Shown here: piece by piece, positions 2,294-63,008 of the stretch
How positions within the stretch are numbered: the first letter of the stretch is position 1
How the letters are laid out: each line of letters begins with the position of its first letter
Source of the DNA: an uncultured Candidatus Peribacteria bacterium
GTDB taxonomy: Bacteria > Patescibacteriota > Gracilibacteria > UBA4473
Direction of reading: 5' to 3'
Assembly (NCBI GenBank): GCA_964343715.1
Contig: CAYFJZ010000005.1
Coordinates: forward strand, 8,220 to 72,219
DNA: 64,000 nucleotides
Notes under the pieces: model-generated
Seen by the model: only the letters and a program-made list of their open reading frames with translations
What the model was told of the DNA's origin: nothing
The model's database searches: none
Translations under genes and position numbers: made by a program

Positions 2294-2379
2294 CGACGCG
2301 TATTCTAACGACCTTCCCCTCAAAACAAAATCCAAACCCCAAGAACGGTGGACCGTCTCTTCTGAATCACCACTGATAA

Positions 2380-4032: not shown

Positions 4033-4072
4033 TACTGATCAATATTCATACAAAGATATTACCTACCCCATA

Positions 4073-4101
4073 ATTCATGATTCATAATTCATAATTCAAT
4101 T
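4073..4101. repeat. degenerate heptamer tandem array (ATTCATG/ATTCATA x4)
   Basis: attcatg attcata attcata attcaat, lying between the stop of 4116-4625 and the start of 2380-4032. Confidence 0.7.
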
Positions 4102-4115
4102 AAAACGACATTCCC

Positions 4116-4708: not shown

Positions 4709-4732
4709 GGACGCAAGATTTTGCGTCCCTAC
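4709..4732 (-). repeat. REP-like GTAG hairpin (GTAG-GGACGCAA...TTGCGTCC)
   Basis: The plus strand reads ggacgcaagattttgcgtcc-ctac; read on the minus strand this is GTAG followed by a palindrome. The same element occurs at 34641-34663 and 36852-36876, all in the same orientation. Confidence 0.6.
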
Positions 4733-5319: not shown

Positions 5320-5364
5320 AAGCACATACTATCATATTTCCCCAAATTGGTACGGAAATAATTA

Positions 5365-7353
5365 TTAAGAAGAAGGGAAAAGGCGATCATACACCCTTTT
5401 CAAATCATTTACATTGCGCACACCGTTCATCTGGGTCATCAATTTAGAATAAAACCTTACTTTGTTGGCCACCATCCTATCCAGTTCATCATCTCCCTCA
5501 TATTGAGGATTATAACGCTTCAAATAAGCCTCCCTTTGGGCCATCAACTCAAAATAGGCTTTATTATCAATGATTATATTCATCAAACCTTTTAAGTTTT
5601 CAGGATTTTCAATCTTGAGCTCAAAATAATGACGCAAAACCTCAAAATCCACTGCTTCCAAAAAACATCTTGATCCTTTTTCCACACAAGTTCTTAATCG
5701 TACAAGAATCCGATTTAGAACCGGTTTTTTGGATAGTTCAAAAGCTTCATTTTCCTCATTGATCACCTCAAAAATTTTTGCAATTACCTGAGAATTACAA
5801 TACCCAAAAGCATAACAATATTGATACAAATCTAACAAATAAGATTCTTCATAACCATGACCCCACTCAGAAACCGACACATCAAAAATCTTTTCTTCTC
5901 TCCATTCGAGCATAATATCTACAGGAACAAAATATCCCTTATGCGCCCGGGCCAAATCAGTCCCCAACAAAGGCACCAAATAGGCCGCATCCGCTTCTAC
6001 TTTTGAAGATATAGCCTTAAAACGAGCCATTTCCTTCAGCTTCGCTTCATGAACAGAAGCCGGTGAATTCGGTGATAAGATGTAAGAAATTCGATTTTCT
6101 CCCGCCCCCCCTCGTTCATAATAAGCCTTCAAATACCACTCCATTCCCTGCCCCATCAAATCAAGATCTTCCTGAGACAATATTCTCTTTCCCTCGCCCT
6201 TCTTCCCCACCATATCATTATCCTTTTTCTTATTTACAACATCTCGTCCCCAAGTAAGTCGAGGTCTTGGCAATCCCAGCAACCAATCCAAATACAATTC
6301 CTTTTCGGGCAAAGCCAAATTTTCAATATCCCCAAAGAGAGTCACTGATTCATAATTTCCAGCAATTCCATCTGCCTCCAAAACCTGCATCAAACGCTCC
6401 CAATAGGCCTTTTTTTTCGTCGGATTAGGTCCCGTATTCGCCAAACGAGGGACTTTTTTGCCCCCAAATCGCTCCTGGTAATAAGCCACTTTTGCCCGGA
6501 CTTCTGCAATCACAAATTCCAAAGGAACCGCTTTTGGTCTCAGAGGATCAGTAGTACAAAAATCACACCCTCTTCCACATTTTGGAGACACCGAAAAGTG
6601 AAGATTCCAGCTATCGGGGTCAATACCGGTACTAAAAGTAGCCACAACAGGAATTTCCCTCCCTACATGCAAATCTTTCGCTACTACCGAATCCTGAGAA
6701 GGAAAAATCACATTCTCAGGAGGGTTCGAGGCTCGAAATCGTCCGACTTCATCACGAAATGTCGTTTCTTTCCCCTGCGCCAAAGATACCATATAATCCA
6801 CCGCCTCATCTCCCCCCCCCAAACCAATCACATCAACCATCCCTTTCTGAAAAACCCGGTTAACCGCTCCCTCATCGGGTCTTCGAAAAAGAGAACCTCC
6901 CACCCAAGTCACCACCCAAGGAGACTTAGCACGAGCATACTCAATCAGGGGATAAGTAATAATATGATCAATCTTATGTCCCCAGAGCGTAAATCCTAAA
7001 AACAAAAATCTTCTTGCCTGATCCGCTTGTTCAACCGCTTCATCAATACAACGCCTATACAAATCCAATATATTTTCTTCCTCTGTGGAAAGCTGAACCA
7101 AAGAATCAATCCCCTTAAGAGTTCTACTAGGGTCAAGGGTTCGAACTCTTTCATTCAAAAGGTTTGAAACCAGATCAGAAGAAAAACCAAATTTTTGCCC
7201 ATTTTTATCGGTAAATCGATAAGAGAAGTCAAAAAAATGAATCAACCCTTCTCTCCGAGAATGATCAAAAAGCTCAACAACTCTATCAGTAATTCGCTCC
7301 ATCAAAAAAACGAATACCAAAACAACCAAATATGTCAACACACCCTCTTCCAA
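5365..7353 (-). CDS. large radical SAM domain protein of unknown function
   Basis: 662-aa ORF with a CxxxCxxC cluster (CGRGCDFC). It has an N-terminal hydrophobic segment and a Rossmann-like stretch (VIGLGGGDEAVDYMVSL) that may be B12-binding-like. Substrate unknown. Confidence 0.6.
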   Translation of the reverse strand: MEEGVLTYLVVLVFVFLMERITDRVVELFDHSRREGLIHFFDFSYRFTDKNGQKFGFSSDLVSNLLNERVRTLDPSRTLKGIDSLVQLSTEEENILDLYRRCIDEAVEQADQARRFLFLGFTLWGHKIDHIITYPLIEYARAKSPWVVTWVGGSLFRRPDEGAVNRVFQKGMVDVIGLGGGDEAVDYMVSLAQGKETTFRDEVGRFRASNPPENVIFPSQDSVVAKDLHVGREIPVVATFSTGIDPDSWNLHFSVSPKCGRGCDFCTTDPLRPKAVPLEFVIAEVRAKVAYYQERFGGKKVPRLANTGPNPTKKKAYWERLMQVLEADGIAGNYESVTLFGDIENLALPEKELYLDWLLGLPRPRLTWGRDVVNKKKDNDMVGKKGEGKRILSQEDLDLMGQGMEWYLKAYYERGGAGENRISYILSPNSPASVHEAKLKEMARFKAISSKVEADAAYLVPLLGTDLARAHKGYFVPVDIMLEWREEKIFDVSVSEWGHGYEESYLLDLYQYCYAFGYCNSQVIAKIFEVINEENEAFELSKKPVLNRILVRLRTCVEKGSRCFLEAVDFEVLRHYFELKIENPENLKGLMNIIIDNKAYFELMAQREAYLKRYNPQYEGDDELDRMVANKVRFYSKLMTQMNGVRNVNDLKRVYDRLFPSS

Positions 7354-7395: not shown

Positions 7396-9597
7396 CTACT
7401 CTCGTACCGTATTCACCGTCAACGTACTAATACGACTATAAAAATTTTTCGTCGCATACATTTTGATCTTAATCAGCATCACATCCCCTCGTTCCCATTC
7501 GGTCGTCGGATCCAGGGTAAAATCATCTACCTGCCACATATTTGATTGAAGTCCAAGTCCCGTTCCCAAAAGCTGATCTACTCCCGTTACGCCTCCTTTT
7601 TCGACTGTAATATCCAATTTGGCATCGGTATCTACCCCATCAGACTGGTACATCAACGAAATCGCCGGATCCTGAAAACTCATAAAATCTTGCCCCACAA
7701 TATAGCGCTTGATCACATCATAGCTCTGAATATCGGTCTTCCAGGTCTCCCATCGCACCACATTCTGCTCTACACCCCAATAGTCCTCAATTTCTTCATA
7801 CATGTTTCCCACATTGTCTGTCCCATCAGCTTCAAAAATCGAATTAGGATAAATAGGACTAAAAATCTCAGAATTAGGACGATTTCCAATCGCCACTCCA
7901 TTAATCGTCCCCACCAACGTTCCTGAAACCGTCAAATCTCCTTCTATGTCCAGAGCATCATTCAGAGTAAAACGATCCAAGGCCCCATCCCACGAAAGCA
8001 CCTTCCCCAAGACTCGCCCAAAGATCAAAGACAACACATCCGAATCCGTAGCCTCCCCCGCAGAATCCAATACAAATTCCGTCTGGTCCGTTCCTCCAGG
8101 AATAACCGTTTCTGGGAGGGTTCCTTCTGGATCTCGTACATAAGGAATTTGTCCGATTTCAAATCCCGTATCCATATGATCCAAACGATCAGAATCAAAA
8201 GCATAAGGGACAGGTCGGAACGTAATACGATCAACTTCATCACTGTTAAAATCAGAGTCCAACATCTGAAAATCAGTCAACGGAGATCCAATTCGTCGAA
8301 CTTCAACCTGCATATAAACAATCCCGGTCTCAAAAATCCGAGGATCAAGCCCTCCTCCAGAACCAATCAACAAAGAAAAATCTCCTCTTTCGTCCAAAAC
8401 CGTACTCTGAGTTTCATTCCATCCTAAGTAAGCCGTACTATATTCATTTAGCTGTCCATCAGGCATTAAGTCTGAAAAATCGAAATCCGCCGAATTCCAA
8501 AAGCTAAAACGAAAGATAAATCCTCCCGTCTCAGGTTCGCCCGCATCATTCATGAGAGTCCCCTCATAAATTAATTCATTGGTCATAGTATCAGCCGCCT
8601 GAGCTGTTCCTCCCATAAGAGGGAGCATCAACAATACAAAAGCCGAAAACCAGTGTTTAGCTCCTCTAATTTTTCGATTGATCCAATCTAGAGCCGAACG
8701 AAAAGAAGCAAAATTAAGCCCTATAAAGTAGAGCTGGGCACCAACCACAACCAAAAGCAGCCACAAAGAAGCTCTAATTTTTCCTGAAGTATCAGAAAGG
8801 GTGGCCATCATATGTACTTTTTCTTTTATTTTTCCATCCACAGTACTACAGAGTCCCAGTATCGTTCCCTCTGCATCACTTCCCAACGCCACATTAACCC
8901 CCTGTGAAAAGTCATCGTATGTACTGTATCCAGCAATTATTTTCCCTAATTCACGTAGTTTTTCAAGGAATTCATGATGCTGATTTTGCAGATCTTTGTA
9001 TTCGGCAAGCTTTCTCGCAGAACCATGCATAGTCGCCTCAAGTACATTTTCATATTCATCACTAAATTCGCTGGTCCTATAAATCAATTCATTGTTTACC
9101 ACCGTATATCGTTTGTCATCCTCCAAAGCCTCAATACTACTCCCACTTCCTGCAGAAGATTGTGGAGCTTCTACAACCTTATATCGATAAAAACCATCGG
9201 GAACAGTCGACTCAAAAGGGTATACCGGGGGGGTATAAACTGTTTTCGGAGCACTTGGATAGTATCCACCCCCTCCAGTGCCACTTCCCCCACCTTCGGT
9301 TCCACCGCCACCCCCTTCAGTGCCACCTCCCCCTCCTCCGGTTCCACCACCACCCCCTTCAGTGCCGCCTCCCCCTCCTCCGGTTCCACCGCCACCCCCT
9401 CCAGTAGTGCTAACCACATACTCATCAAGCGAAGTATGATGATGCACTTTTGAAATCAATCGAAAATTCTCAGAGATCGAAATCTTCTGATCTCCTCCAT
9501 AAACTCGAGTCCGAGCTTTGACCATGTACGCCTCCACCGATGTGAAGATCACACCCGTGACAATGCATACAATTCCAATGATTTTTCGAGCCATCAA
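7396..9597 (-). CDS. membrane-anchored/secreted surface protein with Gly-rich repeat; member of the local surface-protein family
   Basis: 733-aa ORF with an N-terminal TM/signal (IIGIVCIVTGVIFTSVEA). It shares the L.FG...L.WD...RF.LN module and a C-terminal domain (YPNSIFEADGTDNVGN...) with 11496-12947 and 13678-15129. Confidence 0.65.
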   Translation of the reverse strand: MMARKIIGIVCIVTGVIFTSVEAYMVKARTRVYGGDQKISISENFRLISKVHHHTSLDEYVVSTTGGGGGGTGGGGGGTEGGGGGTGGGGGGTEGGGGGTEGGGSGTGGGGYYPSAPKTVYTPPVYPFESTVPDGFYRYKVVEAPQSSAGSGSSIEALEDDKRYTVVNNELIYRTSEFSDEYENVLEATMHGSARKLAEYKDLQNQHHEFLEKLRELGKIIAGYSTYDDFSQGVNVALGSDAEGTILGLCSTVDGKIKEKVHMMATLSDTSGKIRASLWLLLVVVGAQLYFIGLNFASFRSALDWINRKIRGAKHWFSAFVLLMLPLMGGTAQAADTMTNELIYEGTLMNDAGEPETGGFIFRFSFWNSADFDFSDLMPDGQLNEYSTAYLGWNETQSTVLDERGDFSLLIGSGGGLDPRIFETGIVYMQVEVRRIGSPLTDFQMLDSDFNSDEVDRITFRPVPYAFDSDRLDHMDTGFEIGQIPYVRDPEGTLPETVIPGGTDQTEFVLDSAGEATDSDVLSLIFGRVLGKVLSWDGALDRFTLNDALDIEGDLTVSGTLVGTINGVAIGNRPNSEIFSPIYPNSIFEADGTDNVGNMYEEIEDYWGVEQNVVRWETWKTDIQSYDVIKRYIVGQDFMSFQDPAISLMYQSDGVDTDAKLDITVEKGGVTGVDQLLGTGLGLQSNMWQVDDFTLDPTTEWERGDVMLIKIKMYATKNFYSRISTLTVNTVRE
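9259..9408 (-). repeat. in-frame Gly-rich tandem repeat (GGGGGT/GGGGGGTE units)
   Basis: Encodes TTGGGGGGTGGGGGGTEGGGGGTGGGGGGTEGGGGGTEGGGSGTGGGG inside 7396-9597. Confidence 0.8.
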
Positions 9598-11301: not shown

Positions 11302-11428
11302 ATGAATCATAAACACCATTCACCTCCCTACTCCCTTATTACCTACCTCTCAGATACAATCTCATCCCAAAACTCACAAGCTCACAAAATCCCAAGTTCA
11401 TAAGTTGATAGAGTTTGTTCCCAAGTTC

Positions 11429-12947: not shown

Positions 12948-13616
12948 GAGAACAAAGGGTTAAAAAATAAATAATAAATAAATTTCACACATTTCTCCGC
13001 CGTCGGTAAGAAGTTACAAAACTCACAAACTTTGGAGATCCCATAATCAATTTATTTTCCTTCTCTTTCAACTCATGAAGGTTGAACAAAACCTCAAAAG
13101 AAGGTGCAAAAAAAGTGAACGGACAATGAGATATTGCCCCCTTAAAAACCTCAAATTGCTCACAAAACACATAAGTTATTCGAGGAAAATATATATCTAT
13201 AAGTATTGCGAAAAAAACTGATAGTTATAAAGAAATATTTGTATAAATAATGCATACTCACCATATCTCATGATCAAATATTTTATTCACAAATAAAGCC
13301 TCTCTTCGCTCCCAAAAAATCATCCACAATTATTGCCTCAATAAGAACAAAATTATGAAACAACATTTCACATTAAAAGATAAAAATATTTTATCAAGAA
13401 TAAGCATTTTAAACAGCTACCAACAAGGAATATCTTAATTTTTCAATTCTTATAGATTTTTTACTCTTTCCAGGATCAATCCCCCTCCCCTATTCTACAA
13501 AAAAACTTCTCCCTCATCTTACTTCTTACTTCTTACTTCTTAGATACAATCCCATTCCCAAACTCACAAGTTCAAAAGATCCCAAGTTCATAAGTTGATA
13601 CCGTTTGGTCACAATT

Positions 13617-13677: not shown

Positions 13678-15129
13678 TTACTTCGTCAGGTAGTTGAACT
13701 TAATTTCACCCACCTTTACCGGATTCTGATTATCGTGGATATTTCCACTCCAGTCAGATTTTGAAGTCAGGTTGAGCTTAATAGTCAAGAACTCACCCGT
13801 CGTCCAATCTCCGTCATCTTCGGTCGCAAATTCAAGCGCATAATCGTCTTCCCAATCTCCACCGACCGTACTGACCATAACATCTTCGGTTGATCCAACC
13901 ATATCAACAGTCGTACCAGCCGTATCTTCGACTAACAGGTCAATTCTGCTCAGGTTTCCATCTGTACTTTCGGTTGCATAATCAACCGTCATTTCAGATG
14001 TACAAGCCAGATCTCCTACACCACTTGTTGGCTGACAGAATCCCTGGAATCCATCTGGAATTGGCCACTGAACCACAATCGTGTAATCCTGAGCGGTTTC
14101 ACTTCCTCGTCCCTTCATAGTCGACCACTGATAAAAGTTTCGACCAGAAGTTGGGTCATGATCTGCCTCTAGAGTTCCAATATTATTCGATCCATCTCCA
14201 TAAAGCGTAAAGTTTGGATATTCTGGAGTTAGAACCGCCGTTTCCAGTCGGGTCTGAAGATCATCCTGAGTAATAGAGTTATCAGCCAATTCGTAGGCTC
14301 CTACTCCACCTTCAGCAATCTGAACCTCATCTCCTGCAATAGTCAAACTCGTTCCGTCTACATTCACATCCAGGTTTCCGTTAGCATCCTGAACCAAACC
14401 TTCTCCAGCTACGGCCGGATCTAGCATGACTCCCGTTACACTGTTATCCTGGTTGGTGACCCACTGATAAGTCCCGGGACTATCTGCACTATCAGTACAG
14501 AACAAGAGATTCCCATTGGTCGTATTGTAGTACATTCGACCCAAAGAGTCGGCATTACAGGGAGGAGCCCCATCTACAATCACCGCCGCTCCAGAAAGTG
14601 GTACTTCCAAAGCCTGGTCAATCTCTATAATCAACCCCGTTCCATCAATAGCTTTAATCTGGTACATCTCAAGTTCATGAGCAGGACCTCCCGGAAGCGT
14701 AATAAAATCTCCCACAGATAGTCCATGGCCAGTACCATCTAAAGTTATCGAAGTGGCTCCAAGCAATCCCGTTGCGGTCTCGCTCAGAGTCGTTCCATCG
14801 GCATGATTTTCCACCAAGAAATTAAGAATCTGCTTTCCGCTCATATCCAAGTCCTGGCTAAAGATAAACTTATCCAGAATCTTGTCATAACGTAAGAAAG
14901 CATCCTCAGTCGAAGCGGCACTCCCAAAAGAGAGATTAACCATATCCACGGATGAGTCGTCATTGTCCAAAGAATAGGTGTCAGCATTAACACCATCTCC
15001 TTCGGTCGTAAAAATCAAACGCGCATCTGCAGCCCCCGGCAAAGCCAGAGACATACACATACCCAGAGTCAATCCGACTCCCAACGCCCTCTGGGATAAT
15101 GCCCTACTTCTGTTGGAAGTGTGTTTCAT
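13678..15129 (-). CDS. secreted surface protein, paralog 2
   Basis: 483-aa ORF, a tandem duplicate of 11496-12947 that includes the 3' flank and an upstream motif about 155 nt before the ATG. Confidence 0.8.
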   Translation of the reverse strand: MKHTSNRSRALSQRALGVGLTLGMCMSLALPGAADARLIFTTEGDGVNADTYSLDNDDSSVDMVNLSFGSAASTEDAFLRYDKILDKFIFSQDLDMSGKQILNFLVENHADGTTLSETATGLLGATSITLDGTGHGLSVGDFITLPGGPAHELEMYQIKAIDGTGLIIEIDQALEVPLSGAAVIVDGAPPCNADSLGRMYYNTTNGNLLFCTDSADSPGTYQWVTNQDNSVTGVMLDPAVAGEGLVQDANGNLDVNVDGTSLTIAGDEVQIAEGGVGAYELADNSITQDDLQTRLETAVLTPEYPNFTLYGDGSNNIGTLEADHDPTSGRNFYQWSTMKGRGSETAQDYTIVVQWPIPDGFQGFCQPTSGVGDLACTSEMTVDYATESTDGNLSRIDLLVEDTAGTTVDMVGSTEDVMVSTVGGDWEDDYALEFATEDDGDWTTGEFLTIKLNLTSKSDWSGNIHDNQNPVKVGEIKFNYLTK

Positions 15130-23589: not shown

Positions 23590-23826
23590 GTCATCCCGAG
23601 GGCCTTCCTTCTAAATAAAAAATATGATGGTCATCCCTGTGGGAATCGTCAGGGTTCTATGTCAAATCAGGCAACAAATTTGGCTTGTAACACCAACATA
23701 GAGAACGAGAGTTTCACTCCCCATGATGTATACATATCCTTCTTTATCACCCATGCTTTAGATCATAAGGAGGATCCCTCATTTTGTCGACGTTCGTTTC
23801 AAAACGGTCCGTTATTCGGGATGACC
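23590..23826. mobile_element. MITE-like non-coding element bounded by GTCATCCCGA inverted repeats (copy 1)
   Basis: The left end is gtcatcccgagggcc and the right end is ccgttattcgggatgac. Its interior matches 41908-42092 in inverse orientation (gagggatcctc palindrome; acatagaa..ctgacgattc block). No ORF. Confidence 0.55.
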
Positions 23827-23923
23827 ATGATTTATATTCTTTCCTCCCAAATAATGATCAAAACTCCCCCAAAACCTTGTTTTTTCACCAAAATCATGAT
23901 AAAATACACAGAAAACAAAAAAA

Positions 23924-34418: not shown

Positions 34419-34582
34419 GAGAATATCCTCCTATAGATACGTGATTCTTCCTAGTTCATTAATCATTAACAAATCGATACCGCAAAGAGCTGTTTTGTGA
34501 GACGCACAATACGGCATCTAAGAAATGAGTAACGAAAATCATTAAAAATGTCAAGCCCCCCTCTTTTTTATCAAGTAAAAAA

Positions 34583-34617
34583 ATGAAGCATGAATCATGA
34601 ATCATGAAGAATGAATC
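34583..34617. repeat. degenerate heptamer tandem array (CATGAAT x5)
   Basis: atgaagc atgaatc atgaatc atgaaga atgaatc. This is the first native-type repeat to the right of the island. Confidence 0.7.
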
Positions 34618-34640
34618 AAAAACAAAAATTCAGAAAGAAA

Positions 34641-34663
34641 GACGCAATATATTGCGTCCCTAC
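34641..34663 (-). repeat. REP-like GTAG hairpin
   Basis: gacgcaatatattgcgtc-cctac; the same family as 4709-4732 and 36852-36876. Confidence 0.6.
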
Positions 34664-34705
34664 AAGATAACTACTTACTCTTTGTTCTTTGTTATTCACT
34701 CATCC

Positions 34706-35470
34706 CTATCCCTCCATAAGATCAATTTCTGGTTTGATTTCTTCTTCTTGCAAATTGTCTTCCGGCCCACCTTGAACATAAATTTTATTCACATCTTCGA
34801 GCTTCTGATAACGCGAAGCCTCAGGATTATAGGCCTGATACATCAGCTCGATAATCTGCTCGGTCTTAAGCGGATTAACCTTGAGTCCACAGTTTTCAAG
34901 CCCCGTCTGAACCACATTCACACGCACATCAAGTTTATCGCGTAATTGGTGAAATTCCTTCTTACGCTGAATAACATCCAGCACTTTGTCTTCGGGGGTA
35001 ATATACTTCAAAAAGTCAGCAATCATCCCCTTTTTCTTGGAACGCAAAGGGGTATAAGGCACCACCACAAAAAATCGCTTTTCCATAATGTCGGCACTCT
35101 CAACCAGGCGTTGAATAAACTCGATATGCTCCACCATCTGCGCTTTGAGGAGATCGTTTTGCTGACGCTCCTTTTTTTCATTGAGGCTATCGATGTAGGG
35201 ATCAATATCCAACTTTCGAGAGCGCACCATAATCTGAACCGGAAAATCCAAAGCGTTCAGAAAATGCTGAAAAGACATAATCAGCGCGTTTTGCTCCTGT
35301 TCAGACTTCAGATCAAAATTAACCGCCCCCACCTCTAAAATCGCTCGTAGGCCTCCGTCTTTGAGCACCAAAGTATCATCATGAACCCCCGCAAATTGCA
35401 AATAACGCTGAGTAGAAAGCAGCTTATTGGGCTTTTTATTATTTACAGACTTGTTATCGCGGGTACTCAT
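34706..35470 (-). CDS. VirB4/TrbE-like protein, N-terminal domain only (no ATPase domain; truncated or split gene)
   Basis: HDDTLVLKDGGLRAILEVGAVNFDLKSEQEQNALIMSFQHFLNALDFPVQIMVRSR parallels the VirB4 N-terminus as I remember it (IVLLEDGSIMTMARIDGVAFELEE...FNTLLRNI...). The ORF stops after 254 aa with no Walker A. The downstream DNA is repeat-filled and non-coding. Confidence 0.6.
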   Translation of the reverse strand: MSTRDNKSVNNKKPNKLLSTQRYLQFAGVHDDTLVLKDGGLRAILEVGAVNFDLKSEQEQNALIMSFQHFLNALDFPVQIMVRSRKLDIDPYIDSLNEKKERQQNDLLKAQMVEHIEFIQRLVESADIMEKRFFVVVPYTPLRSKKKGMIADFLKYITPEDKVLDVIQRKKEFHQLRDKLDVRVNVVQTGLENCGLKVNPLKTEQIIELMYQAYNPEASRYQKLEDVNKIYVQGGPEDNLQEEEIKPEIDLMEG

Positions 35471-35525
35471 GGAGCAGGATATTTATTTTTAGTATTAGGG
35501 TATCTAGTATTCAGTATATTTTTCT

Positions 35526-36017: not shown

Positions 36018-36118
36018 GAGGAATAAGGAAGTAGGAATAAGGAATATGGGGTAATGAAACAATTAAATGGTTTACCTCTTGGAGTCCCTTATTCCTTATT
36101 CCTCATACCTAATTCCTC
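36018..36118 (+). repeat. about 100-nt long-hairpin element built from GGAATAA-type heptamers with a 34-nt apical loop (copy 1)
   Basis: Arms are gaggaataaggaagtaggaataaggaatatgggg and cccttattccttattcctcatacctaattcctc. The loop contains gtttacctcttggagt. It is homologous to 38381-38488. Confidence 0.7.
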
Positions 36119-36851: not shown

Positions 36852-36876
36852 GGACGCAAAATATTGCGTCCCTACT
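36852..36876 (-). repeat. REP-like GTAG hairpin
   Basis: ggacgcaaaatattgcgtcc-ctac. Confidence 0.6.
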
Positions 36877-38221: not shown

Positions 38222-38380
38222 GATACTAGAACTTAAGCGTATAAACCCCACCCCTCAGCTCGCGCAAGTGTAACTATACAACATACCTTGTCAAATGTTC
38301 CTCCTTTTTCTCCGTTGCAATCTCTCTTTTGTTCCCTAAAATCCGGGTTGAAAACAAAACCAAAGAGTTCTCTCAAAACA

Positions 38381-38488
38381 GGGAATAAGGAATTAGGAAT
38401 AAGGAATTAGGGGTATTTAAACAGCCTTTGCTGTTTACCTCTCGGAGTCCCTAATTCCTAATTCTTTATTCCTTATTCCTTCACTCTT
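38381..38488 (+). repeat. about 100-nt long-hairpin heptamer element (copy 2) in the rpsP/glmS divergent region
   Basis: Arms are gggaataaggaattaggaataaggaattagggg and ccctaattcctaattctttattccttattcc (about 31 bp with 3 mismatches). The 34-nt loop is tatttaaacagcctttgctgtttacctctcggagt. Confidence 0.7.
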
Positions 38489-41904: not shown

Positions 41905-41907
41905 CAC

Positions 41908-42092
41908 GTCATCCCGAATAACGGAATATTTTAAAACTATCTACGATAAAATGAGGGATCCTCGAAATATTAAATGATCAGAGTTTCAAAAAGGATTTTT
42001 TCATACTCAATTAACCTTTTCCTCATTAATAAAAAGGATGATTTCTCATCTTAAGCAGACACTAACATAGAATACTGACGATTCGAAATGAC
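41908..42092. mobile_element. MITE-like element bounded by GTCATCCCGAAT / ATTCGAAATGAC inverted repeats (copy 2)
   Basis: gtcatcccgaataacggaat...aaaatgagggatcctcgaaatattaaa...acatagaatactgacgattcgaaatgac. It lies between the convergent mltG and methylthiotransferase genes. No ORF. Confidence 0.55.
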
Positions 42093-42115: not shown

Positions 42116-43339
42116 TTAATCTTTATTGATAATTGCTAATTGTTCATTGATTAAAACTTCCTCAATCCCCCCTTCCTCCGCTCCCTCCTTCCGAACCCGA
42201 ACAAAATTAGTACTCAACCCAACCCCCTTCCCCTCCCACAAAACCGATTTTGTCTTTCCCAACTGAGATCGATAAAAATCCCGCAACAAATCCTCCCCTA
42301 CCGCTCTCAAATGAGCCGAGCGCTTCTTTTTTTCCTGTTCTGATACTAATCCTTCTTTTAGATGCTCGGCGGCCGTCCCTTGGCGCAGAGAAAAGGGAAA
42401 AACATGCAACTTGGAAAAAGCCAAACGGCGCATCAGATCTTCACTTTCTTTAAATTCACGCTCTCCCTCTCCAGGAAAACCCACAATAATATCACTCGTT
42501 AAAGCCGTATCAGGGCGAACCTTTCGAGCTTTATGAGCCACCTGTTCGATAGACGCCACCCCATGCCCCCGATTCATGAGTTTCAAAACCTTCTCACTCC
42601 CCGACTGCACAGAAACATGAAGATGGTCACAAATTCTTTCATTAGCATACACGTCAAAAAACTCATCACCCAAAAACTCGGGACCCACCGATGATATTCG
42701 AATACGGGGAATGGAAGTTCGCTCTAAAATATATTTGAGCAAGTGTGCAAAACAGTTCTCTTCAGGCTTACGTGTATGAGTTGCCCCCCAAGCAGCAAGA
42801 TTAATACCGGTCAGCACTACTTCTTTCCCCCCCTGTAATTCCAGATTCAAGATTTCTTTCACAATGGCCTCTTTCTCTCGACTTTCACTTTTTCCTCTCG
42901 CAAAAGGAATGATGCAATACGAACAATAAGTATCACATCCATTCTGAATCGCCACATAACGTCGCGTTCGTCCCAAAAACACGGGAAGAGAAGAAGAACT
43001 CATACGAGTGGATTGATCGCTCTCTTTATCTGTGATGATTTTTATCACTTCCTCTATTTGGGGTACCAAAAGAACCTTTGGGAATTGTTGCTTCCAAAAA
43101 TCATGATCAGTACGAGCTCCACAACCCGTTATGATCACATTTTGTGTTCGAGAAAACGCATTTCGAATCTTGATCGCCGATTTCTTATCAGCCGAATGCG
43201 TCACCGTACAGGTATTCACAACAACCCAATCTGGATTATCCTCCTCAATCTGATATCCCCGTTCCCCCAATTCCTTCGCCAAACGCTCAGAATCCACAAA
43301 ATTCATCTTGCAGCCGAGTGTATGGATCTGAATACGCAT
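42116..43339 (-). CDS. radical SAM methylthiotransferase, MiaB/MtaB family
   Basis: UPF0004 N-domain (MRIQIHTLGCKMNFVDSE...VVVNTCTVT), a radical SAM CDTYCSYC motif and a TRAM-like C-terminus. Confidence 0.85.
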   Translation of the reverse strand: MRIQIHTLGCKMNFVDSERLAKELGERGYQIEEDNPDWVVVNTCTVTHSADKKSAIKIRNAFSRTQNVIITGCGARTDHDFWKQQFPKVLLVPQIEEVIKIITDKESDQSTRMSSSSLPVFLGRTRRYVAIQNGCDTYCSYCIIPFARGKSESREKEAIVKEILNLELQGGKEVVLTGINLAAWGATHTRKPEENCFAHLLKYILERTSIPRIRISSVGPEFLGDEFFDVYANERICDHLHVSVQSGSEKVLKLMNRGHGVASIEQVAHKARKVRPDTALTSDIIVGFPGEGEREFKESEDLMRRLAFSKLHVFPFSLRQGTAAEHLKEGLVSEQEKKKRSAHLRAVGEDLLRDFYRSQLGKTKSVLWEGKGVGLSTNFVRVRKEGAEEGGIEEVLINEQLAIINKD

Positions 43340-48638: not shown

Positions 48639-48664
48639 GGGATAAATATTAAAATTTTCCTTTG

Positions 48665-48760
48665 CTCACACTAATTACTAAATACTCATTACTCAAATTT
48701 TTGCCATGAGGAAACCTCCACCGTTGTAGGGGGGTGAGTGTGAGTAGTTAGTATTTAGGG
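48665..48760. repeat. pair of oppositely oriented heptamer arrays
   Basis: ctcacac taattac taaatac tcattac (48665-48694) faces gtgagtg tgagtag ttagtat ttag (48733-48758). The arms are complementary heptamer by heptamer but not perfectly colinear. Confidence 0.55.
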
Positions 48761-48783
48761 ATAAATTTTTTTGCAAAAATTTA

Positions 48784-48873
48784 TGGCGGAGAGAGAGGGA
48801 TTCGAACCCTCGGTGAGATTGCTCCCACACACGCGTTCCAGGCGTGCCCATTCGACCACTCTGGCATCTCTCC
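48784..48873 (-). tRNA. tRNA-Ser (anticodon GGA), long variable arm, CCA encoded
   Basis: The reverse complement is ggagagatgccagagtggtcgaatgggcacgcctggaacgcgtgtgtgggagcaatctcaccgagggttcgaatccctctctctccgcca. Confidence 0.9.
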
Positions 48874-49063
48874 TCGTCGTCGATGACTGCGTATGTTCCG
48901 CTTTCACTACGCTTTGCTTCGTGAAAACTCCACATACTCCGTCATCTCCTCCTCTCCCCAATAAGTCTCCGCATTCGCTCCGAATTCCCGGGGGCCCCGT
49001 TTTTTCGGGGAATTCTATGTAGAACATCATACAATCTTTTGTTTCATGAAAACTCCATTTCTC
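48874..49063 (-). ncRNA. conserved structured leader element abutting tRNA-Ser (copy E2)
   Basis: Stems are gatgac/gtcatc, gtatgt/acatac and (g)ctttcac/gtgaaa(ac). On the minus strand it carries GGGGAGAGGAGGAG and a CCCCG-A6-CGGGG hairpin. Confidence 0.5.
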
Positions 49064-50850: not shown

Positions 50851-50905
50851 TAGGGCAAACACACGGGTATGTCCCCTACGCGGAATATTGTTGGATTATT
50901 AATGA
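50851..50905. repeat. degenerate second copy of the 1210-1262 GTAG palindromic element
   Basis: tagggcaaacacacgggtatgtcccctacgcggaatattgttggatt compared with gtaggggcaaacacacgggtttgcccctacaaatattgttaatt. Confidence 0.55.
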
Positions 50906-53400: not shown

Positions 53401-53447
53401 TACTCCATCACTCTTTACTCTTTACTCTTCACTCTTTGTTCTTCACT
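53401..53447 (+). repeat. pyrimidine-type heptamer array (ACTCTTT-like x6) immediately 5' of dnaX
   Basis: tactcca tcactct ttactct ttactct tcactct ttgttct tcact ends 8 nt before the dnaX ATG. It is complementary to 55104-55136. Confidence 0.7.
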
Positions 53448-53455
53448 AAAACGTC

Positions 53456-55072
53456 ATGACAACCCTCTTTCTCAAATATCGTCCCAAAACCTTTACCGAC
53501 TTAGTAGGGCAAGAATCCATCGTAAAAACCCTCCAGAACGCGATCAAAAATGATTCCCCCGCCCATGCCTACCTCTTTGCCGGCAGTCGAGGAACGGGCA
53601 AAACTTCTTCAGCTCGGATCTTTGCCAAAGCGCTCAACTGTGACGAAATAAAGAGCGGGAACCCCTGTGGAGGATGTCATACCTGTGATGACATTGCCCA
53701 AGGAAACCTCATCGACATCATCGAAATCGACGCCGCCTCCCACACCGGGGTCGACAATATTCGATCTATCATCGAAAAAATCGATTTTGCCCCCACCTAC
53801 GCCAAAAGAAAAGTCTACATCATCGACGAAGTCCATATGCTGTCAAAAGGCGCCTTTAATGCGCTACTCAAAACACTCGAAGAACCACCCGATCACAGTT
53901 TTTTCCTGCTGGCCACGACCGAAATGCACAAGATTCCCGAAACCATTGTTTCCCGATGTCAGACCTTTCGGTTTAATCGGTTTACGATTCCCCAGCTAGT
54001 CGAACGGCTCCAGTTCATCTGTGAACAAGAAGGATTCAAAGCCGATCCTCAAGCGCTCGAAATCATTGCTCAAAAAGCCGAAGGCGGAATGCGTGACTCA
54101 ATTACTCTCCTCGATCAAGTCGCAGCCGAAACCGAAAACAACATCACTCCCGAAGCCGTACGTACCAGCCTCGGACTAGCGCCCAAAGAGCATCTAGAAC
54201 AAATGTGGGAAGCTCTTACGAACAAAAATAGTGATCAAGGAATAAAGATCCTTCATCAATTAAATGAATCCGGAAGCGACTTCCGACATTTTGGTCATGA
54301 ATTTCTAAAGTTCCTTCGAACCAAGCTTCACGAAAACCTAAACACCCCCGAAAAACTCAGCTTAATACTGCCGGCTATTGAAGCTTTCGAACAAGCCGTG
54401 GGACGTCTCAAATCCTCACCCATTGCCGAACTCCCATTGGAAATCGCCATTATTACCCTCTGTCACCACGATCAAATCGCCTCTTCGGCTCCAGCACCTT
54501 CTTCTCCACCAGCACCAACATCAGTTCCCACAGCTTCCTCAAATCCAGCCCCCACACCTCCTCCCCCTTCAGACCCAAGTCCCACCCCATCTCCACCAGA
54601 ACCAACTCCTCCCCCCGAAAAAAACAAACCCAACGACGGATTTGTTTTTGACGACAATACCTCTTCTCCCTCTACCCCATCCCCAAAAAAGAAAGCCGAT
54701 CAAGCTTCGGCCCCTCCTCTCCCCAACGACGGATCAGTCATTCAGCTATCGGCCAACAATGTAACGGTGAATCTCAAAAACATCGGGGAAAAAGCCGGCA
54801 TCCCCATCTTTGCCAAAAAATCTCTTCTCACCACACAAGTAGAAGTAAACGGCCAAGAAGTCACCTTCAAAACCGATTCAGATTTTCATCTCAACAAACT
54901 CACCGCCAACAATGTTGCCGGGCCCATAAACAAAGCCATAAACGATATTTTCGGCCAAGAAGCCTCCATCAAATTCGTCCGCTCAAACACCCCAAAACCA
55001 CGCCCCCAAACAACAACTTCTGATTCGAAAAGCAATGAATCAGCGAGTATCGAAGACTTTCTCAGTTTTTAA
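53456..55072 (+). CDS. dnaX: DNA polymerase III subunit gamma/tau
   Basis: YRPKTFTDLVGQ, Walker A GSRGTGKTS, Zn module CGGCHTC, DEVHML and SRCQTFRF. A Pro-rich linker precedes the C-terminal domain. Confidence 0.9.
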   Translation: MTTLFLKYRPKTFTDLVGQESIVKTLQNAIKNDSPAHAYLFAGSRGTGKTSSARIFAKALNCDEIKSGNPCGGCHTCDDIAQGNLIDIIEIDAASHTGVDNIRSIIEKIDFAPTYAKRKVYIIDEVHMLSKGAFNALLKTLEEPPDHSFFLLATTEMHKIPETIVSRCQTFRFNRFTIPQLVERLQFICEQEGFKADPQALEIIAQKAEGGMRDSITLLDQVAAETENNITPEAVRTSLGLAPKEHLEQMWEALTNKNSDQGIKILHQLNESGSDFRHFGHEFLKFLRTKLHENLNTPEKLSLILPAIEAFEQAVGRLKSSPIAELPLEIAIITLCHHDQIASSAPAPSSPPAPTSVPTASSNPAPTPPPPSDPSPTPSPPEPTPPPEKNKPNDGFVFDDNTSSPSTPSPKKKADQASAPPLPNDGSVIQLSANNVTVNLKNIGEKAGIPIFAKKSLLTTQVEVNGQEVTFKTDSDFHLNKLTANNVAGPINKAINDIFGQEASIKFVRSNTPKPRPQTTTSDSKSNESASIEDFLSF

Positions 55073-55103
55073 ACAAAACTTTTGAACAAGTAGTTTAAAA
55101 ACA

Positions 55104-55136
55104 GTTAAGAGTAGAAAACAAAGAGTAGAGAGTATT
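55104..55136 (+). repeat. purine-type heptamer array 3' of dnaX; left inverted repeat around the four-helix-bundle gene
   Basis: gttaagagtagaaaacaaagagtagagagtatt. Its reverse complement matches 53423-53447 at 20/25 positions and matches 55521-55552. Confidence 0.7.
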
Positions 55137-55488
55137 ACTTTTTTCTGGCAGTCTTTATAGAAGCACACAATATTCTCTGAAGCTCATCACAGTCTTTCCA
55201 CAAAGATTGGCTCAAAGGTTCTTCAATATAATCTGTTGCGCTTAACAACTTTATCCAATACCCAGTCTCTCGAGCTTCTTTATAAGCGATCGAAAGCTTT
55301 GAAGAAAATTCAGCACTTGAAATCGCTCCATTCGCCTCTTCAATATTTGCCCCAATCGAAGTTCCACTTCTCAATATTTGTTTTGATAAAATATATTCCC
55401 TCTTACTTTGAGAAAGGACTTTGTAAAGATCTACAATTCGAACCGCAAACAAAAAAGACTTATCCAACAAAACACTTTTCTTAATCAT
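55135..55488 (-). CDS. four-helix-bundle protein (23S rRNA IVS protein / Avd-like family)
   Basis: ...LRSGTSIGANIEEANGAISSAEFSSKLSIAYKEARETGYWIKLL is the family signature. Confidence 0.8.
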   Translation of the reverse strand: MIKKSVLLDKSFLFAVRIVDLYKVLSQSKREYILSKQILRSGTSIGANIEEANGAISSAEFSSKLSIAYKEARETGYWIKLLSATDYIEEPLSQSLWKDCDELQRILCASIKTARKK

Positions 55489-55520
55489 TTTGTAAAAATT
55501 TAAGAAATATCCCCCAAATC

Positions 55521-55552
55521 AATACTCTTTACTCTTTGTTCTTTGTTCTCAA
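55521..55552 (+). repeat. pyrimidine-type heptamer array; right inverted repeat around the four-helix-bundle gene / 3' of miaA
   Basis: aatactctttactctttgttctttgttctcaa. Its reverse complement, ttgagaacaaagaacaaagagtaaagagtatt, parallels 55104-55136. Confidence 0.7.
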
Positions 55553-56296
55553 CTAATTCAAAGAAATCCACCGAACATCACTTCTCCCCCTCCACCAGGT
55601 CAATTGTCGCTTGGCATAATTCCGATTTCTCTGTTGATTCAAATTCAGAGCTTCTTCATAGCTTAAATCCCCTTTTAGATAGGATTCAATTTCTTGGTAA
55701 CCAAAACTCGTAAAAGCAGATTGAGTAATATTTTTATACAAAGAAAGAACCTGTTTCGTTTCTTCAATCAATCCCGACTCAAATTGCTGACAAGCTCGTT
55801 TATTTATTCGTTCATATAGCTTTTCTCGATCCCATTCGAGTCCCCATTTGAGAACTGGAAAACGAGGTGGTAATTTCTGAGTCGACTTGGTTCCCTTTTC
55901 AGAAAAAACATAATTCTCACTCACCGCATCCAACCACAGCATCGTCCCTCCACACAGCATTGCTACTTTTTCTCGAGACTGAATATCTTCGATCTTTTCA
56001 AAGGCATACTGCTGAAATTGAAAAACATTGAAATCCTCCTCTGGGCTCACTAAATCGATCCCATGATGTGGCACCCCCTGCATTTCATCCTCGGTAATTT
56101 TCGCCGCCGAAACATCCACCCCCCGATACACCTGCCGTGAATCCACCGAAATAATCTCACTATTCCCCAAAGTCAGAGCCAAACGCACCGAAAAGTCAGT
56201 TTTCCCACTCGCAGTAGGCCCCAAAACTTCCACCACCCCATTGGGATGAGAGGCTAGAAAGTCCTTCGTTTCTTGCAGTACTAATTCAAATTTCAT
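55553..56296 (-). CDS. miaA: tRNA dimethylallyltransferase
   Basis: P-loop GPTASGKT, IISVDSRQVYRGVDVSAAKIT...PHHGIDL. Relatively short (247 aa). Confidence 0.8.
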   Translation of the reverse strand: MKFELVLQETKDFLASHPNGVVEVLGPTASGKTDFSVRLALTLGNSEIISVDSRQVYRGVDVSAAKITEDEMQGVPHHGIDLVSPEEDFNVFQFQQYAFEKIEDIQSREKVAMLCGGTMLWLDAVSENYVFSEKGTKSTQKLPPRFPVLKWGLEWDREKLYERINKRACQQFESGLIEETKQVLSLYKNITQSAFTSFGYQEIESYLKGDLSYEEALNLNQQRNRNYAKRQLTWWRGRSDVRWISLN

Positions 56297-59712: not shown

Positions 59713-59733
59713 TAAAAATATTATTATGAACCT

Positions 59734-59808
59734 GTCATTCCGAGTGTAATGACATTTCGAAGCCCTCAAACAAAAAACGAGGAATCCTCGAAATATTAAA
59801 GGCAAAAA
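59734..59808. mobile_element. partial copy (left end only) of the GTCATCCCGA MITE-like family
   Basis: gtcattccgagtgtaatgac...aaaaacgaggaatcctcgaaatattaaagg matches the left part of 41908-42092. I found no right inverted repeat. Confidence 0.45.
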
Positions 59809-60497: not shown

Positions 60498-60674
60498 CAA
60501 TCCCCGTCCTTCTCTTCATATCAACAATCGGAGCAGGGTGTAAAAAATCCTGCTCCAAAATAATTTAGAATCTCGCAACTTTCAAATTCAACACCTCCCG
60601 TCTCCAAAAAACAAGCTTCAAGAACATTTCAAAATTAATGCCCTCTCACTCCTTGCTCACAAATTCATAAGTTA

Positions 60675-60712
60675 AAACTCTCCACTCTATACTCTCTACT
60701 CTTCACTCTCAC
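60675..60712 (+). repeat. heptamer array 3' of mraY (purine-type in mRNA sense)
   Basis: aaactct ccactct atactct ctactct tcactct cac on the plus strand. Confidence 0.65.
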
Positions 60713-61809: not shown

Positions 61810-61850
61810 GGGAGTATAGAGCATTAAGTATGGAGTATTAAGTATTAAAG
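61810..61850 (+). repeat. heptamer array 5' of mraY (pyrimidine-type in mRNA sense)
   Basis: gggagtatagagcattaagtatggagtattaagtattaaag. It contains gagtatagag, which is complementary to ctctatactc in 60675-60712. Confidence 0.6.
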
Positions 61851-61967
61851 TCCAAAAACTAAAAAAGCTCCTCCCATTATTATTAATTGTTAACTTTTAA
61901 TTCCCTCCACTCCTTACTCACAAGTTCAAAAGATAAAAAGTTAAATAACTCTTCACTCTCTACTAAT

Positions 61968-62897
61968 CTAAACCCCTTCCCCCAAATACGTCACCCAGAT
62001 AATCGTCTTCACCAAGATGTAAGAAAAGACAATCAAAGCCAACCCCAAGACTCCATAGACCATCCCATTTTTGGCTCGGGTCAACCGCTCGGTATCTCCT
62101 GCCGTCGTAGCCATATTGACTCCATTAAAAACCACAAAAAACACCGCCACCACCCCCGTAATGCCCACAATAATATCAATCGCCTTCTGAATCACAATCG
62201 TCACATCGCCTGCTTCTCCTTTCTTATCATCTTTGTCCCTACCAGGCATATATATGGGTTTCTTAGCCGCATTTTTTTTCATCGCATCACTCAAAGAATA
62301 AGGGCCCGTTGGCAGAGGCTCTTCTTCAGCCGCTTCTTCTCCTCCAGGAGTAGTAGATTCCGAATCCATTCCTCCATCAGTACCGCCATCGCCGCTCCCC
62401 CCCATATCCCCCGTCGAACTTTCTTCCGACATCCCCGCTCCCCCTCCACCACTTCGTCCACGGCCTCTGGACTTCTTCGGCCCACCTCCAAACAAATGTC
62501 TTACCGAATACCCCACCGACTTGGTCTCCTCATCAACTTCAGAAACCTTAATCTCAATATCTGGTTTTCCATGCCCATCAATATTAACTTCTTTAGAAGA
62601 GCCCTTATCAATTGAATGCTTGTCCCCATTAACGATAAAAACGGCGCCATCTGCAGTTACCGAATCTACAGAAATTGAACACGAAACAGGGCAATTTGGA
62701 GTAGCCGCTGAAGCGCCCCCCCCAGAAGTAGTCGAAGCCGCCTCGGGCGCTGGATTTTCAGCCGCCGTTGGCTCCGCAGGAGGATCATCCGCGGCCCATA
62801 TCTCCCCAAACAAAAAACCGCCTCCCACCAATACACCCAATCCCCAAAAACCAAGACGAGGAAGAAAAAGCGTTTTATTTTGGGGCCCCAACTTCAT
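61968..62897 (-). CDS. secreted Gly/Ser-rich protein ending in a VirB2/TrbC-like pilin module
   Basis: From the ATG at 62897: signal/TM LGFWGLGVLVGGGFLFG. The C-terminal hairpin reads VGITGVVAVFFVVFNGVNMATTAGDTERLTRAKNGMVYGVLGLALIVFSYIL. Confidence 0.6.
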   Translation of the reverse strand: MKLGPQNKTLFLPRLGFWGLGVLVGGGFLFGEIWAADDPPAEPTAAENPAPEAASTTSGGGASAATPNCPVSCSISVDSVTADGAVFIVNGDKHSIDKGSSKEVNIDGHGKPDIEIKVSEVDEETKSVGYSVRHLFGGGPKKSRGRGRSGGGGAGMSEESSTGDMGGSGDGGTDGGMDSESTTPGGEEAAEEEPLPTGPYSLSDAMKKNAAKKPIYMPGRDKDDKKGEAGDVTIVIQKAIDIIVGITGVVAVFFVVFNGVNMATTAGDTERLTRAKNGMVYGVLGLALIVFSYILVKTIIWVTYLGEGV

Positions 62898-63008
62898 TTT
62901 TTCGTATTTCTTTAGTAACCGAAGAATACCTTTCTCCACCAAAAAAGAAAGCCTCCCCCCACCTCTTAGTTCTTTATTCTTAATTCCCATTCATCTACCA
63001 TAAAATTA

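Follow-up and report, generated by a model that had tools for sequence, protein, structure and literature searches.

Heptanucleotide repeat arrays of fixed orientation in the gene spacers of a Candidatus Peribacteria contig and their recurrence as arms around 23S_rRNA_IVP genes

In cyanobacteria, tandem heptanucleotide repeats have served for strain typing since 1990, and Mazel et al. reportedly described them there in that year as short tandemly repeated repetitive (STRR) sequences. To our knowledge, neither a gene-relative polarity nor a cassette structure is known for STRR sequences or for long simple sequence repeats (SSRs). In the survey by Mrazek et al. (2007), the heptamer is reportedly the commonest unit of long SSRs, and 7 nt is proposed as the favoured slippage unit. 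In the literature, the excess of heptamers in many genomes is attributed to slippage. Degenerate arrays that resemble these repeats, in being tandem heptanucleotides dispersed in intergenic DNA, occur in a 64-kb stretch of an uncultured Candidatus Peribacteria bacterium (contig CAYFJZ010000005.1), which is referred to here as the window. Unlike the arrays of the window, STRR sequences and long SSRs are described as fingerprinting markers or slippage products. An earlier note on this DNA had proposed that arrays read in mRNA sense are of a CT-type before start codons and of a complementary AG-type behind stop codons. This observation is partly confirmed. Our preferred reading, to which we give an even chance, is that the arrays are heptanucleotide repeats of the STRR or long-SSR type with a fixed orientation in the spacers, and that pairs of the same heptamer family are the arms of spacer stem-loop elements, including a cassette with a gene of the 23S_rRNA_IVP (IVP) family, which would undergo RNase III-type processing.

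The same orientation rule was published by Rehm et al. (2015; PMC4692102) for the GGGAATC repeat of Xanthomonas and the GGGGA(C/T)T repeat of Nostoc PCC 7120, which overlap stop codons and form 70-75 convergent pairs per genome, and whose function was left open. Thus, the rule in the earlier note is a rediscovery in a new lineage. The arrays of the window share with these SSRs the 7-nt unit (in about four copies there), the strong intergenic bias, the overlap with stop codons and the convergent inverted pairs, but they differ in their A/T-rich units without G-tracts, in the presence of several families per genome and in their host from the candidate phyla radiation (CPR). In the strains studied by Rehm et al., the repeats are absent from plasmids and the associated genes belong to no functional class; a link to IVP genes was not examined in that study (PMC4692102). 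For the repeat TAACTGA in Beggiatoa, MacGregor (2015; PMC4679880) reported that 147 of 170 sets point to a start codon and 12 to a stop codon, mostly without a ribosome-binding site (RBS), and proposed a leader role for them. These repeats, which are found in marine Beggiatoaceae, cyanobacteria, and Bacteroidetes, are also direct repeats of a heptamer (2-6 copies there) that are almost all intergenic, oriented to gene ends, usually not accompanied by an RBS and sporadic in their phyletic spread (PMC4679880). They differ in having one dominant heptamer per genome, a location mostly at start codons and only rare inverted pairs (one), whereas the window contains many heptamers that are mostly located at stop codons.

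A further group of related elements are the intervening sequences (IVSs) of 23S rRNA. Work on Leptospira is part of the background on these elements, and the IVP protein that they share with the window is a relative of Avd, the accessory protein of diversity-generating retroelements. IVSs carry an IVP open reading frame (ORF) and are excised by RNase III (PMC11270868). The elements in the window resemble them in the cargo family (PF05635/TIGR02436), in the location of the ORF within inverted repeats that are able to form a long stem and in the existence of short versions without an ORF. Unlike IVSs, they are located between protein-coding genes and have arms consisting of tandem heptamers, and their cleavage by RNase III is postulated.

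Tandem degenerate heptamers are found at nearly every coordinate cited in the earlier note. In the window, Tandem Repeats Finder returns some 25 rows with a period of 7, a strict self-match criterion returns 14 period-7 arrays compared to 0-2 for most other periods from 4 to 15 and 4 for period 12, and a looser criterion returns 29, with Markov shuffles giving 2.5 and periods 5, 8, 10, and 11 giving 3-8. For further analysis, the stretch was enlarged to 78.5 kb by joining overlapping contigs to the window, which resulted in 27 period-7 arrays compared to 1-8 for control periods. Twenty of these 27 arrays are intergenic, with intergenic DNA accounting for only 19% of the stretch (p = 7e-10). 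No array is located between 15 and 34 kb, a region that holds 32% of the intergenic DNA (p = 4e-4), which is consistent with the claim that a foreign island in the window has none. The array proposed at 11330-11355 is barely periodic or unclear and lies beyond an intrinsic terminator, and the one at 35491-35520 is present, but weak and mixed in composition. As stated before, the heptamer differs by locus, with at least six families in 78 kb and units such as ACTCTTT, CCTTATT, TCTTACT, TTCATAA, and ATTGNTA. The repeated G3 runs needed for a quadruplex are missing from these A/T-rich units, with the sole exception of GGGG at the inner end of the purine arms of two hairpins at 36.0 and 38.4 kb. 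Thus, G-quadruplexes cannot explain these arrays. A comparison of contigs from two source samples for copy-number variation of the arrays showed them to be identical. In scans for sigma-70 promoters and terminators, promoter-like matches were at chance level, and the promoter scan is therefore uninformative on the transcription of the arrays.

Half of the examples in the earlier note are the two arms of one spacer element. A 105-nt hairpin that lacks an ORF is present twice, at 36018-36118 and, 2.3 kb apart, at 38376-38488, and its two copies are 85% identical including a loop of about 35 nt. The predicted RNA folds have energies of -41 kcal/mol (z = -4.8) for the first copy and -50.2 kcal/mol (z = -7.9) for the second copy. 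The loop motif has only two occurrences in the window, and no more copies of the hairpin were found in 229 other loci searched. As short, intergenic, imperfect palindromes that are multicopy (here two), the hairpins resemble repetitive extragenic palindromes (REP), bacterial interspersed mosaic elements (BIME) and MITEs (miniature transposable elements with inverted repeats). They differ from these in their internally periodic arms and in having only two copies in 78 kb; target-site duplications or an associated transposase or RAYT were not noticed in the 78.5 kb either, for which no dedicated test was made.

The third element is located between dnaX and miaA and consists of a purine arm, an IVP gene and a pyrimidine arm, with arms of 39 nt that are 79% complementary. 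In the minimum-free-energy fold of the 468-nt cassette transcript, these arms form the closing stem. The cassette is located in the spacer between the two genes and not within an rRNA helix, and an Rfam scan of the window found tRNAs only and no rRNA. The best homologues of the encoded 117-aa IVP protein (57-66% identity) include proteins from metagenome-assembled genomes (MAGs) named Chloroherpetonaceae, Bacteroidales, and Ignavibacteriales. An exact identity of 18 nt, ATTGATAATTGCTAATTG, is shared by positions 42125-42142 of the window and positions 2362-2379 of locus L212 from the unrelated MAG GCA_041851675, in which an IVP cassette contains it within its 3' arm. The possibility that solo arrays are decayed half-hairpins was tried and rejected, as no partner arm above shuffles was found in any of 9 spacers.

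The enclosure of IVP genes by heptamer arms was further analyzed by scoring flanking inverted repeats within 110-120 nt on each side of 18 IVP loci, comprising the two loci in the window, locus L049 of a Moranbacteria MAG, five loci from metagenomes or MAGs, and ten annotated loci on plasmids; the sample sizes are small. The score is above the 99th percentile (12.2) of 384 control genes in 12 of the 18 loci and above the 95th percentile in 15. The arms are heptamer-periodic with period 7 being dominant, and every strong one is purine-first. The hosts belong to CPR, Bacteroidota, Cyanobacteriota, Chloroflexota, and Spirochaetota, and the inverted-arm architecture around IVP genes thus recurs in five phyla. 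Heptamers of the arms in several hosts are given in Table 1; the IVP gene of Euhalothece is flanked by an STRR2-like TGGTCAC array. The cassettes sit between functionally coupled genes such as those for an ABC ATPase and a MacB permease, two permeases, an RND adaptor and its pump, cas2 and cas1, or a helicase and an N6-methylase, and an IVP gene is also found next to carbamoyl-phosphate synthase (such insertion loci are L212, L226, L232, L235, L238, and L214). In Nostoc flagelliforme, arm, gene, and arm are 100% identical over about 570 nt at three paralogous loci, whereas the flanks differ by roughly 5-12%, beginning about 25-30 nt outside the arms. This identity of the unit within diverged flanks suggests that the cassette moves or converts as a unit. 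In locus L132, a tandem array of units of about 170 nt was observed at about 5000-5720 (minus strand) 5' of an IVP homologue (46% identical), each unit consisting of an ACTCTTC array followed by a AAGTGAATAGTGAATAG array.

The polarity described in the earlier note holds in the contig, but it carries no information on mRNA orientation. Algebraically, the rule equals the statement that AG-type arrays on the plus strand are located to the right of any gene and CT-type arrays to the left of any gene. Due to this identity, every spacer reads as a purine array followed by a pyrimidine array, whatever the direction of the genes. Arrays that are of the pyrimidine-type on the plus strand are nearer to the right-hand gene in 10/10 automatic calls and in 11/12 cases when the additional arrays from the earlier note are included. 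Their distance to this gene is mostly 0-32 nt, and several overlap a stop codon on the minus strand. Purine-type arrays on the plus strand are not boundary-hugging and are nearer to the left gene in 1/4 to 1/6. In spacers with two arrays, the purine array lies to the left of its pyrimidine partner in 5/6. When tallied relative to genes in mRNA sense, about 11-12 3' arrays are purine-leaning and 8 5' arrays are pyrimidine-leaning, while several are mixed. Exceptions are both IVP genes, which have the reverse arrangement, and the pair of opposite order at 48671-48758. In gene flanks that lack arrays, the purine fraction is 0.50 on either side; polarity is therefore a property of the arrays themselves, and the idea that the arrays amplify a general compositional asymmetry was ruled out. 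A universal validity of the rule in CPR was also rejected, with only 26 consistent compared to 17 inconsistent cases at 76 loci with crude gene calls; gene boundaries at many loci rely on our own crude ORF caller.

The relatives L004, L009, and L010, which use other heptamers (CTTAGAA, AACTTGT/ACAAGTT, and TCAGAAA), show the same polarity and placement of arrays. Polarity was also found in unrelated metagenome contigs from JGI, in which a scan for ACTCTTNACTCTTNACTCTT returned more than 120 stretches on contigs with a GC content of 0.33-0.72. From 111 distinct ACTCTTN arrays in pyrimidine reading, those with a gene boundary within 45 nt point toward the gene in 64 cases (21 starts, 43 stops) and away from it in 24. 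The start-directed arrays end 2-38 nt before the start codon, and genes ending inside arrays look genuine, with plausible protein C-termini. An inverted AAGAGT partner is present within 300 nt of 16 out of 104 arrays, and the order is purine-first in 16/16.

According to the stem-loop reading, an array faces the neighbouring gene in its pyrimidine-rich reading and is directed away from it in its purine-rich reading, and a transcript crossing the spacer would fold the arms into a stem of 25-40 bp. By analogy with the IVP-bearing IVSs of 23S rRNA, such a stem may be an RNase III-type substrate. Its cleavage would separate the flanking messages and free the enclosed IVP message. The 7-nt periodicity would allow several pairing registers, and the arms could grow or shrink by replication slippage. 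The polarity rule for host genes would be the footprint of how these elements sit in spacers. Folding in vivo, cleavage by RNase III, and any role of the IVP protein are presumed here. Among the three roles that the earlier note had considered, RNase III-type stems fit best, with the modification that the stems, with the purine arm on the 5' side and the pyrimidine arm on the 3' side, are closed around the spacer or around an inserted IVP gene and not around each host mRNA.

Several points weigh against this reading. Both an RNase III gene and rRNA are missing from the window, the array pairs in the spacers at 34.6 kb and 61.8 kb are non-complementary, the order is reversed in the pair at 48.7 kb, and no arms enclose the second IVP gene of the window. 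Single arrays without a detectable partner in their spacer are the majority both in the window and among the metagenome arrays (88 of 104 there); they obey the polarity nonetheless and are not covered by the stem model. Close relatives (MiaA 66-67% identical) have almost no arrays, which shows that the arrays are dispensable. Finally, the 18 IVP loci were chosen from best matches and a spread list and not as a random sample, and their controls were taken from CPR loci only.

In the earlier note, the arrays had been explained by pairing of the 5' and 3' arrays of one gene within the mRNA, which would circularise or bracket it. The ends of dnaX and mraY do bear complementary arrays: the match of 20/25 positions between the 5' array and the reverse-complemented 3' array of dnaX is correct, as is the perfect complement of 10 nt between the two arrays of mraY, and arrays of the units AACTTGT and ACAAGTT flank mraY in L009. 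However, when the best ungapped complementarity was scored for all 14 x 8 pairs of pyrimidine and purine arrays, the same-gene scores (13, 10, 4.5) were no better than scores between different genes with the same heptamer family (15, 11, 11, 10, 9), and the same-gene scores were below those of within-spacer pairs (17.5-23.5). The 3' array of dnaX scores 13 with the 5' array of dnaX, but its score is 17.5 with the array on the other side of the IVP gene, 15 with the 3' array of mraY, and 10-11 with three others. The same-gene score of 10 for mraY compares to 11 for its 5' array with an unrelated array, and the score of 4.5 for gene 34706-35470 equals background. The arrays at 4067-4102 and 34578-34618, which are 30 kb apart, are also complementary (score 18). 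Arrays are found at both ends of only three genes, an intrinsic terminator intervenes between the stop codon and the 3' array at 11.3 and 13.5 kb, and the polarity rule is independent of gene orientation. The complementarity reflects the use of few heptamer families in both orientations, and pairing between the two ends of an mRNA is very improbable.

The main rival of the stem-loop reading is neutral slippage combined with an orientation filter. According to this explanation, arrays arise by slippage in lineages prone to it, survive only where they are harmless, and serve no function of their own, and the presence of IVP cassettes in such spacers is incidental. The purine-poor version would be tolerated near start codons because it is free of Shine-Dalgarno (SD)-like motifs, AUG, and GUG, and the version with U plus purines would be tolerated or mildly favoured behind stop codons because it closes all three frames. 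This explanation agrees with the attribution of heptamer excess to slippage mentioned above and with the sporadic distribution of arrays among relatives, as they are dense in the window, L004 (CTTAGAA), L009 (AACTTGT/ACAAGTT), and L010, but absent or nearly absent in L005, L008, L090, and L091. The relatives identified via miaA have a different synteny and almost no arrays. Heptamers vary by locus and genome, and arrays at the orthologous mraY flanks in L004-L010 are not conserved. In addition, arrays encode C-termini of genes and supply stop codons; 3' arrays close a mean of 2.5/3 frames in sense compared to 1.4 in antisense direction, and 5' arrays contain 4 ATG/GTG in sense compared to 12 in antisense direction (summed per-array rows). 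However, the excess of stop codons over composition is small (48 vs 39), and GGGAATC of Xanthomonas is stop-free in both orientations, yet follows the same rule. A three-frame stop function was rejected for the modest size of this excess and for its inapplicability to GGGAATC. Furthermore, flanks without arrays have no asymmetry of purines and pyrimidines, and the purine-first order in 16/16 pairs, the IVP-specific enclosure, and the identical cassette in diverged flanks are unexpected from independent events. Neutral slippage with an orientation filter is a possible, though less likely, explanation.

A role in the 5' leader is possible for the pyrimidine arrays. According to this explanation, those before start codons are putative unstructured landing pads for the ribosome or for binders with an oligonucleotide-binding (OB) fold such as S1 and cold-shock proteins; the cold-shock domain covers about 7 nt. 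The description of the genome as SD-less is supported by the frequency of SD-like motifs 5' of native starts, which is at chance (6/55 vs 12.5%), and pyrimidine arrays are found 8-160 nt upstream of three plus-strand and about five minus-strand genes with SD-less leaders. At dnaX, glmS, mraY, and the gene at 63008, they end 8-30 nt upstream of the ATG. In L010, L052, L009, and L061, arrays end 0-12 nt before the starts of ribosomal-protein and other genes, and the start-directed arrays in metagenomes as well as the start-directed TAACTGA sets of Beggiatoa, mostly without RBS, also speak for such a role. However, most arrays in the window are adjacent to stop codons, where the purine version is present in the mRNA and a leader role does not account for them, the arrays belong to many heptamer families, a 5' array is found at only about 8 of about 65 genes, and purine-type arrays precede start codons in some other CPR lineages (L028, L061, L083). 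As an explanation of the arrays, translation leaders are therefore unlikely. Other leads considered are a resemblance of UUAACUYUU to the T7 'epsilon' enhancer and Rho rut sites, with Nostoc not being known to have Rho.

The arrays could also be operator-like sites for a DNA-binding protein, e.g., a ribbon-helix-helix repressor binding contiguous heptads as known for omega of plasmid pSM19035. Contiguous 7-bp units in direct and inverted orientation near gene boundaries would agree with such sites. However, 78 kb of this small CPR genome contain at least six heptamer families that are unrelated to each other and have no single conserved heptad consensus, many arrays are located at the 3' ends of genes or inside terminal codons, and the same architecture is found with different heptamers in five phyla. 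Sequence-specific binding, which the earlier note had also considered, is unlikely with this number of families, and operator-like arrays are hardly credible.

Table 1. Arrays and elements in the window, and heptamers of IVP cassette arms in other hosts.
Feature	Position	Strand	Units or arms	Remarks
Solo pyrimidine-type array	53401-53447	+	ACTCTTT/GTTCTTC	Ends 8 nt before dnaX ATG; no complementary partner in own spacer
Purine-type arm of IVP cassette	55103-55141	+	AAGAGTA	dnaX 3' array of the earlier note; 39-nt inverted repeat, 79% complementary to 55516-55554
Four-helix-bundle/23S_rRNA_IVP gene, 117 aa	55135-55488	-		Cassette cargo; PF05635; TIGR02436 3.7e-30; PDB 2RLD 1.9e-31
Pyrimidine-type arm of IVP cassette	55516-55554	+	TACTCTT/TGTTCTT	miaA 3' array of the earlier note
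Hairpin element, copy 1	36018-36118		Purine arm 36018-36051 (GGAATAA), about 35-nt loop, pyrimidine arm 36083-36118	PrgI 5' and comF 3' arrays of the earlier note
Hairpin element, copy 2	38376-38488		Purine arm 38376-38414, pyrimidine arm 38446-38488	rpsP 5' and glmS 5' arrays of the earlier note
Purine-leaning array	34578-34618	+	ATGAATC	Left partner of a non-complementary pair in one spacer
Pyrimidine-type array	34670-34704	+	ACTCTTT/GTTCTTT	Touches stop codon of minus-strand gene 34706-35470
Intrinsic terminator	34643-34665			Directly beyond array 34670-34704
Weak mixed array	35491-35520	+	AGTATTN	Purine fraction 0.50; 20 nt 5' of minus-strand gene 34706-35470
Solo pyrimidine-type array	60675-60712	+	ACTCTNN	First unit includes mraY stop codon
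Purine-leaning array	61810-61850	+	GAGTATN	21 nt 5' of mraY ATG (minus strand)
Pyrimidine-type array	61946-61968	+		Abuts stop codon of T4SS-pilin-like gene 61968-62990 (minus strand)
Pyrimidine-type array	62963-62987	+		20 nt 5' of ATG at 63008, VWA/SLH gene
Pyrimidine-type array	13510-13547	+	TCTTACT x3.7, 100% match	131 nt from stop of 13678-15129 (minus strand), past the terminator of that gene
Array	4067-4102	+	TTCATAA	14 nt from stop of 4116-4625 (minus strand)
T-rich array	1243-1267	+		10-11 nt from stop of 1277-2335 (minus strand)
Array	42120-42153	+	ATTGNTA	Codes for last codons of MiaB-like gene (minus strand)
Inverted pair, opposite order	48664-48758		Pyrimidine-leaning 48671-48695, purine 48741-48758	18 nt, 89% complementary; between tRNA-Ser and second IVP gene
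Second four-helix-bundle/IVP gene, 115 aa	48291-48638	-		Not arm-enclosed; GTAATGA-type array 30 nt upstream
IVP cassette arms			AATTCAA/TTTTGAA	Nostoc flagelliforme; 30/30
IVP cassette arms			GTCGGAG/CGACCTC	N. punctiforme
IVP cassette arms			GATTAGT/ACTAATC	Bernardetia
IVP cassette arms			ACCAGTG/TGGTCAC	Euhalothece
IVP cassette arms			GTAATGA/TCATTAC	Three unrelated hosts

Next to tRNA-Ser, the sequence and position of the purine array GTGAGTGTGAGTAGTTAGTA (48725-48754) are kept in L091 (about 7180-7205), whose MiaA is only 67% identical; this is the sole array seen to be conserved between genomes. The motif CTCACAAGTTCAAAAG adjoins pyrimidine arrays 3' of pilin-like genes and mraY (window 11375-11420, 13560-13600, 60650-60675, and 61912-61945; L009 4285-4325). 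It may be a decayed array of the ACAAGTT/AACTTGT family, since arrays of this family flank mraY in the related MAG L009.

MraY of the window is 76% identical to MraY from a MAG named 'uncultured Candidatus Peribacteria', followed by matches from Gracilibacteria and Peregrinibacteria MAGs. Judging from these homologues, the host belongs to the CPR. Support was obtained for the gene names dnaX, miaA, mraY, PrgI, glmS, rpsP (S16), and the ComF-like phosphoribosyltransferase, while no Pfam match was obtained for the 'VirB4-like' gene at 34706-35470 (minus strand). The ORF at 48755-49030 is spurious, because tRNA-Ser occupies this position. In the whole window, the plus strand has a strongly negative GC skew of -0.1 to -0.44 in every 2-kb bin with genes on either strand, which suggests that the replication strands are highly asymmetric, as has been described for some other CPR genomes. 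The window is part of a metagenome contig of 100 kb in ENA (ERZ930070 k127_41411). Compared to that record, the window has 126 additional nt at 9266-9405, which correspond to three 42-nt units. These extra units sit within a proline-rich coding repeat of a 733-aa ORF and are a copy-number variation or an assembly collapse.

REP elements have a conserved 5' GTAG as their hallmark. A family of GC-rich hairpins starting with GTAGGG(A/G)C is found at 1210-1239, 4722-4732, 34653-34663, 36865-36875, 62232-62242, and about 50855-50880 of the window. The motif GTAGGGRCRNA has 6 matches compared to 0.23 expected, and several copies resemble intrinsic terminators of minus-strand genes. This family is a better REP candidate in the window than the 105-nt hairpin. 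A further dispersed repeat with ends like GTCATCCCGA...TCGGGATGAC and the common motif GGATCCTCGAAATATTAAA is found in three intergenic regions (about 41905-41985, about 59725-59800, and about 23590-23830).

The orientation of heptamers relative to genes was documented in 2015 without explanation, and the CPR contig and the metagenome survey extend this rule to A/T-rich units that do not form G-quadruplexes. The G-quadruplex as the leading structural idea is removed, because the rule holds for units that are unable to form such structures. As a warning for annotation, real genes can receive their stop codon and terminal codons from arrays. The rule for units of this kind in CPR and in diverse metagenome contigs is new here, and the link between heptamer arrays and IVP cassettes is apparently unreported so far; no paper linking STRR or heptamer repeats with IVP genes was found in the literature that was searched. 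The purine-first arms around IVP genes link two orphan features, namely the heptamer repeats on the one hand and a very large family of proteins without known function on the other, and this link yields a concrete hypothesis on RNase III-type processing of spacer stems and on cassette mobility. As a more tentative extension, the STRR-type heptamer arrays across bacteria (cyanobacteria, Xanthomonas-like, Bacteroidota, and CPR) might be the arms of IVS-like stem-loop cassettes, or might have descended from such arms. These cassettes would form a widespread family, the IVP-bearing form of which would be autonomous. Such cassettes would move or convert as units, would insert between genes including operon partners, and would be tolerated via processing of the stems at the RNA level. 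The polarity would then be their footprint, and the IVP protein may act on the RNA or DNA of the arms.

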